Below, piece after piece: positions 10,955-36,866 of a DNA stretch of 52,368 bases. The stretch lies in the IMG/VR virus record IMGVR_UViG_3300028591_008384; one strand, given 5' to 3'. The stretch is from a virus (lineage: Duplodnaviria > Heunggongvirae > Uroviricota > Caudoviricetes). Position 1 is the first letter of the stretch. The number at the start of each line of letters is the position of its first letter. Under the pieces are notes generated by a model that had not been told where the DNA came from, made no database searches, and was given only the letters and a program-made list of their open reading frames with translations. Made by a program: the position numbers and the translations under genes.

Positions 10955-11160
10955 TAGTCCTTCTTGAACACGATCCTAATCGGGTTGAAGCACTCGAACA
11001 CATCGCTGAACTCTTCCTTAGCAATCTCCATGAACGGGTCGTCTCCCTTGCCATACTTGACGAGGGTGCTACCGGTTGCAATGAGCAGGAAGCACGGGAG
11101 GGAGAACAGGAAGAATGCCCCCAGGATGATGAACATGATGATTTTGACAATGAGTTTCAT
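10954..11160 (-). CDS. small membrane protein
   Basis: MKLIVK start, GGAGG RBS, long hydrophobic N-terminus. Confidence 0.7.
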   Translation of the reverse strand: MKLIVKIIMFIILGAFFLFSLPCFLLIATGSTLVKYGKGDDPFMEIAKEEFSDVFECFNPIRIVFKKD

Positions 11161-11173
11161 ATTTCCTCCACGC

Positions 11174-11431
11174 CTAGTATTTCCAGGCATCGTTCATTTT
11201 GCCCGCAAAGAATTCATAGGGTTTGCGGATTACTCCGAGCTTTTCCTTCTCGGCCTTGGAGATACGGCGGAACGGGTCCTCCTCCAACTTGGACGACACG
11301 TATTCCACCTCGTAGTTCATGCAGACCTGCTTGGTGAAGTATTCGTTGAAATCGTCACCGGGCATCTGGCAGAAAGTGATGTATTTCTGCGGGTCTCCCG
11401 GCTTACGGTAGATTACTGATATTGTGTGCAT
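11174..11431 (-). CDS. hypothetical protein
   Basis: 85 aa ORF. Confidence 0.7.
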   Translation of the reverse strand: MHTISVIYRKPGDPQKYITFCQMPGDDFNEYFTKQVCMNYEVEYVSSKLEEDPFRRISKAEKEKLGVIRKPYEFFAGKMNDAWKY

Positions 11432-11589
11432 GGTGCATCCTCATCTGCTTCATACCTCCAGCAGACAGAGTTCGGGTTGTCTATTTCGCTGTTAGTTGGG
11501 TCATTGAAGTGACTGCCAAAGGAACAATCATTCCAGAATGCCCTGAGACAGTCGTCGCGGTGCTTGCAGAGCTTATACTGCCTGTCCAT
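11413..11589 (-). CDS. small Cys-rich hypothetical protein
   Basis: MDRQYKLC start with AGGAGG RBS, 58 aa. Confidence 0.6.
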   Translation of the reverse strand: MDRQYKLCKHRDDCLRAFWNDCSFGSHFNDPTNSEIDNPNSVCWRYEADEDAPCTQYQ

Positions 11590-12103
11590 CCTTGGCCTCC
11601 TTTTCCCAGTCGATCCATTCGCCGTCATCGCGCTTGAACTCGTTGTCGTACCATTCATGGCGGAGCTTCACACAATAGTTTCCCGGGCGCTTGCTTTCGC
11701 GGACGGCAGCCTTGATTGCCTGATCGCGGTCGCTGTAATTGATTGACATTTCGTCAAGCATCCCGCCCACGTCATCATACTGGAAGGATACTATATACAC
11801 TTCGTTAGTCCTGCAATGGCTTTTCATCATCTTGCAGTAGTCATCGAAGTGCTTGCGCAAGTCTTCCTGCAATTCCGCATGGAACGTGTCCAACCAATCC
11901 GAATAATCCATGGCAGCATACCGCTGGTCGCCAATTTCTCGATGATAGTGTTTGCAGACACACTGCTTTGCCTGTTCTTCGGTGAAAATGTAGACCCTAG
12001 CGGCATTCGGCTCCACGCCACAACCAGGGTCATACCAGCAGCGCACCTTGCCGTTACCGAGATGATAGCGACTGCCGCATGTAAGACAGCACTTGTTATT
12101 CAT
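11573..12103 (-). CDS. hypothetical protein with N-terminal Cys cluster
   Basis: 176 aa ORF; CCLTC..C..C..C. Confidence 0.75.
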   Translation of the reverse strand: MNNKCCLTCGSRYHLGNGKVRCWYDPGCGVEPNAARVYIFTEEQAKQCVCKHYHREIGDQRYAAMDYSDWLDTFHAELQEDLRKHFDDYCKMMKSHCRTNEVYIVSFQYDDVGGMLDEMSINYSDRDQAIKAAVRESKRPGNYCVKLRHEWYDNEFKRDDGEWIDWEKEAKDGQAV

Positions 12104-14689: not shown

Positions 14690-15342
14690 TTTGCCCATGC
14701 GTTTGACAGCCGCATTTTGCCTTTGCTAAGGGCAAAACCCGTTGGGCAACGGGTGCCGGTCTCCACTGTCCCTGTTGACCGAGCCGAGGGAAACTACCTT
14801 CACCGGGGTTGTCAATACCCCGCCAGGGTAGACGACATGGCGAACGGCGTATAGCGAGGAACTTCCGCGCCACTTGGCCCTATGATGGGCACCGTCCGCT
14901 GTATTTTTCCGATTTCCCACAGAGGCACGTCCTACGGGGGCAACTTCATGATTAGAAGTCCTAGCTTCATCGGGAAGCTTAACAAACTTGTTCGCCGAGA
15001 TTTTGCGCAAGCCCTCTCGGCGGGAATCACTCTGGGTAATCACTTCCAGTTTGGCATCGGGATGCCGCAGCGCTTTCCAATAGCTGCCGGAACGTCCCTC
15101 GGGACACTACGCCACTGTTCCGATGCGGCATGCCGTGCCCTAACCCGTCAGCACGGTAACGGTGCATTAGTCGCCACCGATTTCCGTGGCTTTCATGCAG
15201 ACCATGGCGTTAACCGCAGCCATGGATACGGGCCCCGCGACACGAGGTGCCACGGGAACATCTCCCTACCTGGCCAGAGGGCTGCATGTGTGGTTCTTTG
15301 TTTCCACCCGCACGGAATACTCTTTCAACCGGTAACCCGGCC
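14690..15342 (-). ncRNA. large (~650 nt) ornate structured RNA, unassigned
   Basis: >12 hairpins and domain closures, e.g. CATGCAG/CTGCATG, CGCCGAGA/TCTCGGCG, CCCGTTG/CAACGGG, TTTTGCC/GGCAAAA; flanked by tRNA-like elements. Confidence 0.6.
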
Positions 15343-16204: not shown

Positions 16205-16860
16205 TAGACAAAAAGCGCCGGGGTGGCTCATGGACTTAACCAGGGGAGAGCCACCCCTTGCCGCTTGCCGTTCTCGCATTTTTCGCTCCCTGGGGCGCCT
16301 CGGGGAGACAATCAAGTCATCCGAGGTACAATAGTAAGCAAGCGACTGTACCGCTACCGTAGCCTGTCGGGGCCATACCTTACCAGCCTTACTCGAGATA
16401 GCCGGGGACGGCATGTTGGTCTGCGGTAATAAAAGGTTGTCACCGGTGCGGTTAGGCGTGGGCTTTGCGGGCTTTCACCCTCGACCAGACGATGAACCCT
16501 AAGGTATTGTCCAGCCAAAGTGTTGCTAAGGATGTTGGAACGATATATAGTGATCGTGACGCTACCTGTCATAAGTTTCGCGGATAGGATTTGTCCCCTA
16601 TATTGCCCGCGCTGTTTGCCACACCTGTTAATGCCTGGTGGCCACGATGGCGCCGGAGTCCTAAGCACAGGCGCTATTAACACCTGCTCATTTAGACGAC
16701 CGCGTTCAATGGGTGGTAGCATTTTCTTCCAGCCCCTACGTGTCCCGGCCAGCCGGATGCGCATCCTGCACTGGTCTGCGAATTTCGGAAACCGAGGATA
16801 CCTAAGACGGCGCGACCGTCGGGCGGAATGCTACTAGAAACCCTATTCAGTATCCATTTA
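16205..16860 (-). ncRNA. large (~650 nt) ornate structured RNA, unassigned
   Basis: GGATAC/GTATCC, TAGCATT/AATGCTA, TGTTAAT/ATTAACA and GACGG/CCGTC stems; 3' GGGGTGGCTC/GAGCCACCCC then TTTTT. Confidence 0.6.
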
Positions 16861-16865
16861 AATTT

Positions 16866-17046
16866 ATCCGCATGCGTGGTGTTTGGGACTTCCACCCGTG
16901 TCAACGGCCTGTAACCGAACCCTGCATGCGGATCCTCGGGGAGAGCTACTTCCCCGGGGACCGGCTATTAAACACACTGGGCCTATTAGCGGGCCCTTAC
17001 CGCTTTACGCTCGCGTGGCCGGTACGCGGCTTCACGCATGCAACCT
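16866..17046 (-). ncRNA. ~180 nt structured RNA with two competing closing stems
   Basis: 3' CACGCATGCGGAT pairs with either 5' GCATGCGTG or internal ATCCGCATGC. Confidence 0.5.
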
Positions 17047-17290: not shown

Positions 17291-17296
17291 ATTTCG

Positions 17297-17654
17297 TGGA
17301 GGTGAGGGGAGTCGAACCCCTGTCCTAAACGCCATTCCAGTTCAACCATATCGCCATCAATCTATTCGGGCCCTGACCTGTTGCCCAAGGTGATCTAACC
17401 AGTGAGGGGTCTGGATTAAGGTAAGGTAGGCCATTCAATCCATAACTCCGGCCTAGATTTGAGAGATATGCACTTGGTCCCAGGATTTATTCCTCTCGCT
17501 TGTCCCAGGCAGCAGCATAACTACCGATTAGGCAGCCATGCGGCAGGCGAATGCATTGTCAGCATTTATTGTTTTAGTCCGTTTTTACGAAGCCACAGAC
17601 CAACTTCGGGCGAGGTCTCCATGGTCCGATGCCCAGTCGAAACCAAGCACCCCC
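17297..17654 (-). ncRNA. ssrA: tmRNA
   Basis: 5' GGGGGTGCTTGGTTTCGAC; 3' GGGGTTCGACTCCCCTCACCTCCA; tag ORF (A)ADNAFACRMAA* after ATAAAT. Confidence 0.95.
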
Positions 17655-35912: not shown

Positions 35913-36866
35913 TTACCTGTCCTTTACTAGACGTACCGAGAAGCCTAACGCCTTGCGGCGGCTTTCCCAGCTAGAATATGGCGTCGCGCTCATATAAATA
36001 CGCCATGCGTTAGATTCACATGTTGCATCAATACTGGATGACCAGAAGTTTGTTGTCGTGCTATCAGCGATGAAGGTTCCATTCCAATATCCAGTAGGCT
36101 TAACATCGAATATGGAACCCCAATACCCCTCCTGCATCAAACTGTTGGTATTGACCACGGTAAGAAGTTCATCCCACTCGTCTCGCGAAGGTAAATGCCA
36201 GCCAGGAAGATTGTCTACAATTCTCTTTACCGCGTCCCATGTGTAGTAGTATTCGCCGTTGTCTTGATTGAAGTAAATGCCTTCGCCGCCATCGTTTATA
36301 TCAAGATTCCTGGTCATCCAGATTTGATTACCGATTTTTACGGAATGCTTTTCAAGATACTTAGGCATATCAACAGCATGCAGTTCAACATCGAGCAACT
36401 CGTTTAACTCGTTTGTACTTGGTCTCGGCCACGGTAAGGGAATCACAATCCCCATGTAGTTCACGGTGGGCTCACGCCATTCAGTATCCCCGAATTTACG
36501 AATGCGAACATCCCGCGTAACAAGTGAATCATCGTCTTCATTCTGATATGAATAAAATGAATGAACATTAGCAGCACCTATATAATGGATTTGACCATTA
36601 CCTTTAGCACACCATTCAGCAAGTTCTTTGTTTGTTGGTTTGGTTCTGGGCTTTGGTTCTTCGGGAATTTCGGCACAGTGCAGCCATCTCGCACTGCCGG
36701 TGCCGACAGCCTGAGTTGTTCCCGCTACCGTACGGATTACCGCATATACGGTCTGGACGAGCGGATCGTTGCACTTAACGTCTTTGTCCCACACGAACAT
36801 CTGCCTCGGAGGGTCAAATACCTGCGGGACAGTGATTTCCTTGAGTTTCATTCCTTTGTAATTCAT
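35913..36866 (-). CDS. protein with C-terminal Fibrobacter succinogenes major paralogous (FISUMP) domain
   Basis: KIGNQIWMTRNL, YYTW, PGWHLPSRDEW, FWSSS, GFSVRLVKD. Confidence 0.88.
   Translation of the reverse strand: MNYKGMKLKEITVPQVFDPPRQMFVWDKDVKCNDPLVQTVYAVIRTVAGTTQAVGTGSARWLHCAEIPEEPKPRTKPTNKELAEWCAKGNGQIHYIGAANVHSFYSYQNEDDDSLVTRDVRIRKFGDTEWREPTVNYMGIVIPLPWPRPSTNELNELLDVELHAVDMPKYLEKHSVKIGNQIWMTRNLDINDGGEGIYFNQDNGEYYYTWDAVKRIVDNLPGWHLPSRDEWDELLTVVNTNSLMQEGYWGSIFDVKPTGYWNGTFIADSTTTNFWSSSIDATCESNAWRIYMSATPYSSWESRRKALGFSVRLVKDR

Follow-up and report, generated by a model that had tools for sequence, protein, structure and literature searches.

A conserved, modular non-coding RNA segment in the tRNA and tmRNA island of a probable giant rumen phage

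The tRNA cluster of phage T4 contains two genes, rnaC and rnaD, that do not specify tRNAs and stand on the same strand as them; their stable products, the species 1 and species 2 RNAs, each form one unit of about 120-140 nt, have no known function and are thought to be cut from a common precursor. Long gene-free RNA islands surround the tRNA and tmRNA genes of giant phages, and the non-tRNA RNAs found there are almost wholly uncharacterised. For the structured RNAs ROOL, GOLLD and OLE, multimers are held together by palindromic kissing contacts (PMC12286853), and ROOL itself was named from rumen data (PMC12286853, PMC5737381). Here we describe a segment of a phage RNA island that adds an uncatalogued family to this field, with a usable alignment and a covariation-supported fold.

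The segment lies in the IMG/VR record IMGVR_UViG_3300028591_008384, a stretch of 52,368 nucleotides assigned to the Caudoviricetes, which we call the window and which is probably part of an uncultured giant rumen phage. Its genes are small, stand mostly on the minus strand and have few family matches; the Pfam and PHROG scans returned a PHROG HNH-endonuclease family, radical SAM, WDGH, DUF1848 and the Fib_succ_major domain, and no RNA-related partner was found by these scans among the neighbouring proteins. The protein with the Fib_succ_major domain (Fibrobacter succinogenes major paralogous domain; 35913-36866, minus strand) is a possible hint at the host or its habitat. A gene-poor island occupies about 13.0-18.4 kb of the window, and the segment (16205-16860) is placed there between the tmRNA gene, 440 nt upstream, and the tRNA-Thr gene, about 55 nt downstream (Table 1). 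Minus-strand promoter-like sites were observed only at the edges of the island, at 18387-18359 (TTGACA-N17-TACATT) and at 13066-13038.

Table 1. Features of the RNA segment and of the surrounding island. Positions refer to the window; the word pairs are given in plus-strand coordinates.
Feature	Position	Strand	Description
tRNA-Pro		-	island RNA gene
tmRNA	17296-17654	-	island RNA gene
tRNA-Thr		-	island RNA gene
tRNA-Met (two)		-	island RNA genes
tRNA-Arg		-	island RNA gene
D1	16706-16857	-	optional 152-nt 5' module, multi-stem
D1 closing helix	16716-16834	-	invariant, 8 bp, GUAGCAUU/AAUGCUAC
D2	16579-16702	-	three adjacent hairpins A, B, C; palindromic CCGGCGCC
D2 hairpin A	16654-16702	-	
D2 hairpin B	16614-16645	-	
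D2 hairpin C	16579-16611	-	
V1	16519-16578	-	variable linker/insert; this version unique to the window lineage
D3	16440-16518	-	about 80 nt, most conserved module; long irregular hairpin P1-P5, GNRA tip, kink-turn-like internal loop
AU-rich linker	16428-16439	-	12 nt, between D3 and D4
D4	16350-16427	-	branched, closed by ACCGC/GCGGU
D5	16260-16346	-	9-bp closing helix GUCGCUUGC/GCAAGCGGC, variable internal hairpin
3' terminator-like hairpin	16220-16257	-	10-11 bp stem
GGCGC	16215-16219	-	invariant, between stem and T run
T run	16210-16214	-	T5 in the window; AAAAA on the plus strand
Word pair GGATAC/GTATCC	16796 / 16850	+	
Word pair TAGCATT/AATGCTA	16717 / 16827	+	
Word pair GACGG/CCGTC	16806 / 16816	+	
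Word pair TGTTAAT/ATTAACA	16626 / 16676	+	
Word pair GCCTG/CAGGC	16633 / 16668	+	
Word pair GGGGTGGCTC/GAGCCACCCC	16220 / 16248	+	3' stem; GGCGC and then TTTTT beyond it on the minus strand

Seven related loci carry the segment, and the edges of homology agree almost exactly with the limits that an earlier sequence-only reading of the window had drawn: similarity to the relatives starts at about 16857 and stops at the T run, at about 16210. In L001, a locus on a 224-kb IMG/VR contig that was reached via a neighbouring protein, the block aligns to 16859-16211 of the window, and the alignment collapses just beyond both ends. Pattern scans yielded a relative locus on a 203-kb contig (L089) and the metagenome loci L093-L101, on contigs from 2 kb up to 299 and 399 kb, one of which, L098, matches the window at 99.9% identity; L090, L102 and L103 were discarded as chance matches. 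A 15-mer scan of IMG/VR gave 86 loci, with real matches on two contigs only, those of L001 (the same contig as L063) and L078; the D2 and D5 patterns pointed to exactly the same two contigs in this database, and the D1 pattern added none. The segment had no match in the GenBank phage collection (blastn), and pattern scans of bacterial genomes produced chance or coding matches and no RNA relative. Two such matches from Rhodospirillales, L107 and L109, hold the 21-nt core word of D3 inside the coding sequence of membrane-protein genes (...RLVEGESLLND...) and were rejected as RNA relatives, being chance coding matches; the bacterial matches with ...RLVEGESL... include cation/proton antiporter-like genes of Rhodospirillaceae.

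From the CheckV completeness of the 203-224-kb contigs (G001 and G002), which is 52-59%, together with related contigs of up to 399 kb (399 and 300 kb for L099 and L100), the clade probably consists of rumen phages of roughly 400 kb, and the family is so far known from this one clade of rumen giant phages only. A related phage record (G003) shares other modules of the island and lacks both the present element and D3.

The island also contains smaller modules upstream of the segment. Between an upstream hairpin and D1, the window has a 68-nt hairpin module (16866-16933, minus strand) with a 10-bp closing stem, AUCCGCAUGC/GCAUGCGGAU, that occurs in the window lineage only; in relatives without it, ...GTGTTTGA runs directly into D1 or D2. 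The module upstream of the element ends (16970-16996, minus strand; about 18150-18185 in L001) in a GC hairpin followed by AGUGUGUUU(A/G); the window and L001 have different sequences in the stem of this hairpin and the same tail after it. UGUGUUUAAG, which is similar to this tail, was found after D3 in L078. The sequence GTGTGTTT was considered as a punctuation motif and rejected, as it has a single occurrence in the island and shows no enrichment. L001 has 13 closely packed tRNA genes (10979-12057) some 5 kb upstream of the island with its tmRNA, and the corresponding part of the window has no such array.

The interval 16210-16857 on the minus strand is a genuine conserved, folded and non-coding RNA segment. 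Its RNA sense is that of the tRNAs and tmRNA: in comparison with shuffled sequences, the minus strand folds better (z -2.3), while the plus strand folds no better (z -0.7). All six word pairs of the sequence-only reading, five from its nested domains and one from its terminal stem, were recovered at their positions, and the stems are real; their nesting did not hold throughout, because TAGCATT/AATGCTA crosses GGATAC/GTATCC, and these two are either alternatives or a pseudoknot. Neither of them varies among the relatives. GCCTG/CAGGC is lost in L089 and L100, and TGTTAAT/ATTAACA, whose centre is kept in those two loci, has a C-A mismatch in three sequences and competes with a local hairpin (GCAGGYGUU-AAU-...) that is intact in all sequences.

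The covariation among homologues that had been proposed as a check was found, and the conserved structure carries compensatory changes. The consensus fold was computed with RNAalifold from an alignment of eight sequences (A4), in which 97.1% of the predicted pair cells are paired, against 36-41% with slid partners, a percentage that is inflated because the structure was derived from the same sequences. Pairs changed on both sides numbered 15, compared with 0-3 for slid partners and 7.1 +/- 1.8 for shuffles, and none of 500 shuffles scored as high; a misaligned flank in L100 accounts for three of the 15, so that about 12 are real, a modest count that comes from about five independent lineages, some of them recombinant. 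The clearest evidence of pairing is given by the middle pair of GACGG/CCGTC, the D5 closing helix, hairpin B of D2 and the swaps in the 3' hairpin. The Rfam search, also proposed beforehand, matched no family to the segment, either with the window at the gathering score or with stretches of 7 kb and of 781 nt at E<=10, and bacterial RNase P RNA, which word resemblances had suggested, was rejected, with no RNase P model matching at E<=10.

Every covariation-supported helix is local, and the segment divides into five domains, D1 to D5, and a 3' hairpin. D1 is present in the window, L001, L097 and L093-L096 and cleanly absent from L089 and L100; in these two loci ACGCGG, the start of D2, follows directly on the upstream flank (...GTGTTTGAAAA) that they share with the others. 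The middle pair of the GACGG/CCGTC hairpin of D1 (16806-16820) is C-G, G-C or U-A according to lineage. D2 is present in eight of the eight aligned sequences. Its hairpin B keeps GCCAC/GUGGC in all of them, with a double change from C-G to U-A in L100, and the loop of this hairpin has been replaced in L089 and L100, which retain a possible GUUA/UAAC loop-loop pairing between hairpins A and B. The V1 linker is absent from L093, L095 and L096, almost absent from L100, and replaced by a different insert of 100-140 nt in L001, L094, L097 and L089; three of these loci (L001, L094 and L097) also have an 88-nt insert, V2, between D4 and D5, and a replaced D4 tip. The closing pair of D4 is A-U, G-U or U-A, and three pairs of its inner helix have changed on both sides. 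In D5, the closing helix shows a double change from U-A to A-U in three sequences, and the second helix a change from G-C to A-U. Hairpin tips have been replaced among relatives in D2, D4 and D5, and these replacements, like the V1 and V2 inserts, are confined to junctions or tips. Selection acts on the local fold of each module separately, and related phages have acquired, dropped and swapped whole modules.

D3 is the most conserved and the most striking of these modules. Its interior is identical at about 60 of 62 positions (about 97%) between this clade and L078, L091 and L101, lineages whose tmRNAs are only about 73% identical to those of the clade. In the D3 alignment (A5, model R1), 95% of pair cells are paired, against 35-46% with slid partners, and P1 shows compensatory changes; model R1 finds exactly one copy of D3 per phage record. 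The near-invariant interior, together with compensatory changes across many helices, indicates selection on the folded RNA itself. In L078, L091 and L101, D3 heads a different and otherwise unalignable intergenic RNA of about 430 nt. This structured RNA (3057-3485 in L078) is flanked by small ORFs; a QueD-like (PTPS) gene stands upstream of it, and a gene with a PNKP-phosphatase domain is nearby. It ends in a hairpin closed by GGGCGC/GCGCCC, the interior of which is swapped between L078 and L091/L101, and the nearby tmRNA of these contigs carries a different tag.

The internal loop of D3 fits, as a pattern, the kink-turn consensus. In the relatives, the hairpin GGGY-GRAA-GCCY would correspond to the C stem, followed by a 3-nt bulge (GUG), GA opposite GA as tandem sheared G-A pairs, and a GACC/GGUC stem as the NC stem. 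This pattern is present in seven of the eight aligned sequences, and two side-by-side hairpins are an equally compatible fold. The eighth sequence is that of the window, whose copy is degenerate: model R1 gives it 74 bits, compared with 108-119 in the other records, V1 and the 5' strand of P1 were replaced as one piece, and in the kink-turn region UGG has become CAA, with one base lost and the key G of the kink-turn-like G-A pair being an A. The family fold is not the minimum-energy fold of this copy. No gene of the L7Ae family or for Ro60 (TROVE) was found in three related, incomplete phage records.

At the 3' edge, the sequence-only reading had described a 10-bp stem and TTTTT. Both elements are there, with the correction that the stem does not directly adjoin the T run, since GGCGC intervenes. 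Three pairs of the stem have changed on both sides. Every lineage retains the hairpin, GGCGC and a run of T4-T5 and has a different sequence past them, so that they mark the end of a unit. The structure resembles an intrinsic terminator in its GC-rich stem of 10-11 bp, its run of 4-5 U, its conservation and covariation, and its position at the 3' edge of the unit. It differs in its loop of 18-21 nt, in the 5 nt that separate the strong stem from the U run unless a 3-bp extension forms, and in the tRNA gene that follows within 2 nt in relatives; a simple consensus terminator scan did not call it, owing to the loop length and the spacer. On its own, the 3' region has a folding energy of -26 to -33 kcal/mol, and an extension by GCG/CGC (3 bp) would take the stem to the U run. 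This extension competes with the covariation-supported closing helix of D5, which leaves room for a switch between the two predicted pairings.

In L089, 2 nt separate the T run from the start of a tRNA-Asn(GTT) gene (807-880), and the sequence of L093-L096 is the same at this place; the gene has been lost from the window lineage. A tRNA gene at such a distance implies that read-through is frequent in the relatives and that there is no efficient stop at this site. The earlier proposal that the hairpin may attenuate read-through into the tRNA-Thr/fMet half of the island is reasonable and plausible.

The segment looks like a chain of separately folding modules rather than a proven single giant RNA. 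We read it as such a chain within a polycistronic stable-RNA precursor of a giant rumen phage, a reading that we believe about as readily as we doubt. The minus-strand transcript, probably from the 18387-18359 promoter, would contain tRNA-Pro, tmRNA and the segment, followed by tRNA-Thr and tRNA-Met, and its modules (D1, D2, D3, and D4-D5 with the 3' hairpin) would each fold independently. Host RNases may cut this precursor at the tRNA 5' ends and at AU-rich linkers, which would leave one or several stable small RNAs, by analogy with T4 species 1 and 2. D3 would be the functional core, most likely as the binding site for a protein or another RNA; because its copy in the window has lost one strand of the basal stem and the kink-turn-like G, this core would be dispensable or decaying in the window phage. 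The 3' hairpin and its U run would act as a leaky terminator, as a stem protecting the 3' end, or as both, rather than as a full stop. This reading is supported by the non-coding character of the segment, its local covarying structure with no supported long-range helix, the clean insertion or deletion of D1, the restriction of inserts and replacements to junctions and tips, the occurrence of D3 in another RNA, the lack of the element in G003, the tRNAs and tmRNA on the same strand with promoter-like sites at the island edges only, and the read-through expected in L089 and L093-L096. Against it, the clade always has D2, D3, D4, D5 and the hairpin together and in one order; D4, D5 and the hairpin are set apart by linkers of 2-4 nt, which also fits a single RNA; and the T run is the exact limit of homology, as it would be for one gene.

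These last observations are the strength of the main alternative, in which the segment is one large multi-domain ornate RNA, a single molecule of about 520-840 nt from D1 or D2 to the 3' hairpin, with D1, V1 and V2 as dispensable peripheral domains and possibly with self-assembly into an RNA-only particle like ROOL or GOLLD. We consider it possible, though clearly the less probable of the two. The 5' and 3' homology edges are sharp and shared, the D2 and D5 patterns match exactly the same two IMG/VR contigs, and the part from D2 to the tightly packed D4-D5-hairpin region is collinear in all relatives, at identities down to 70-77%; this linkage is, however, weak evidence, because collinearity among them is just as good across the remainder of the island. 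Palindromes in D1 (GGAUGCGCAUCC) and in D2 and D5 (GGCGCC) could form intermolecular kissing contacts, and ROOL and GOLLD likewise occur near phage tRNA islands and have variable regions; the segment, on the other hand, has no Rfam match to ROOL, GOLLD or any other family. No long-range or inter-domain pairing covaries. The sole predicted long-range helix, in which GCGCC of D2 pairs with the GGCGC that follows the 3' hairpin, does not vary in any sequence and is therefore uninformative, and a search for stacked, always-paired, covarying long-range helices returned only 4-bp candidates at noise level, with the low power of few lineages. D3, moreover, works in a different RNA context elsewhere. 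The sequence-only reading had proposed a second, independent giant RNA. The segment is indeed conserved, structured, non-coding and unrelated to the other large candidate of the window, with no similarity to 14690-15342 or to anything else in the window; the notion of a single giant RNA fares less well, given that the helices are local, that D1 is an optional 152-nt module and that D3 is reused in a different RNA.

A structured cis-acting spacer, made of processing or insulating stems and an attenuator, or recombination debris, in either case with no function as an RNA product, appears unlikely. As an attenuator, it would set the ratio of transcripts from the tmRNA side to those from the tRNA-Thr/Met side. 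The 3' hairpin and T run are the best-conserved boundary, inserts and deletions are frequent, the window D3 is degenerate and the element is absent from G003, all of which suits a spacer; compensatory changes in many helices and the near-invariant interior of D3 do not, and 650 nt is far above what an attenuator needs. Slightly more doubtful still is a bolder pair of ideas: either D2-D5, with or without D1, would represent a new class of large phage RNA whose invariant palindromes (two copies of GGCGCC, and GGAUGCGCAUCC) mediate assembly into a ROOL- or GOLLD-like particle made of RNA alone, or the ultra-conserved D3 would act on the phage tRNA/tmRNA precursor, helping to process or protect it as a catalytic or guide module of a new type.

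The segment is not coding. The 136-aa ORF at 16354-16764 (minus strand), although open in the window, varies in start and in length (71-136 aa) among relatives and is missing where D1 is missing, one-base indels shift the frame within highly conserved blocks, the variable sites of each domain fall evenly on all three codon positions, and no ORF of the segment matched Pfam or PHROG. A small protein encoded by this ORF, or by the ...RLVEGES... frame through D3 that is open in several relatives, is thus very improbable, and it is pairing, not coding, that accounts for the correlated changes in the two P1 strands.

The locus illustrates how such islands evolve, through the gain, loss and exchange of self-folding modules, and D3, being nearly invariant across lineages, offers a concrete target for pull-down or structural work. 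It also cautions that a long structured gap is not automatically a single "giant RNA".

Compared with the described systems, the segment resembles ROOL and GOLLD (PMC12286853, PMC5737381) in its hundreds of nucleotides of dense conserved structure, in being phage-encoded beside tRNA genes, in its variable or dispensable regions, and in having no known protein partner or function. The GOLLD and ROOL covariance models gave no match to it at the gathering score or, with the two shorter stretches, at E<=10, and it differs from these RNAs in having no covariation-supported pseudoknot or long-range helix and in sharing D3 with an otherwise unrelated RNA. Judged by description, it is also like the species 1 and 2 RNAs of T4, as it too stands in a phage tRNA cluster on the strand of the tRNAs, whereas it is a 650-nt chain of five domains. 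The segment represents an uncatalogued family, modular in build, of a broad kind that is already known, the uncharacterised structured RNAs of phage tRNA islands.
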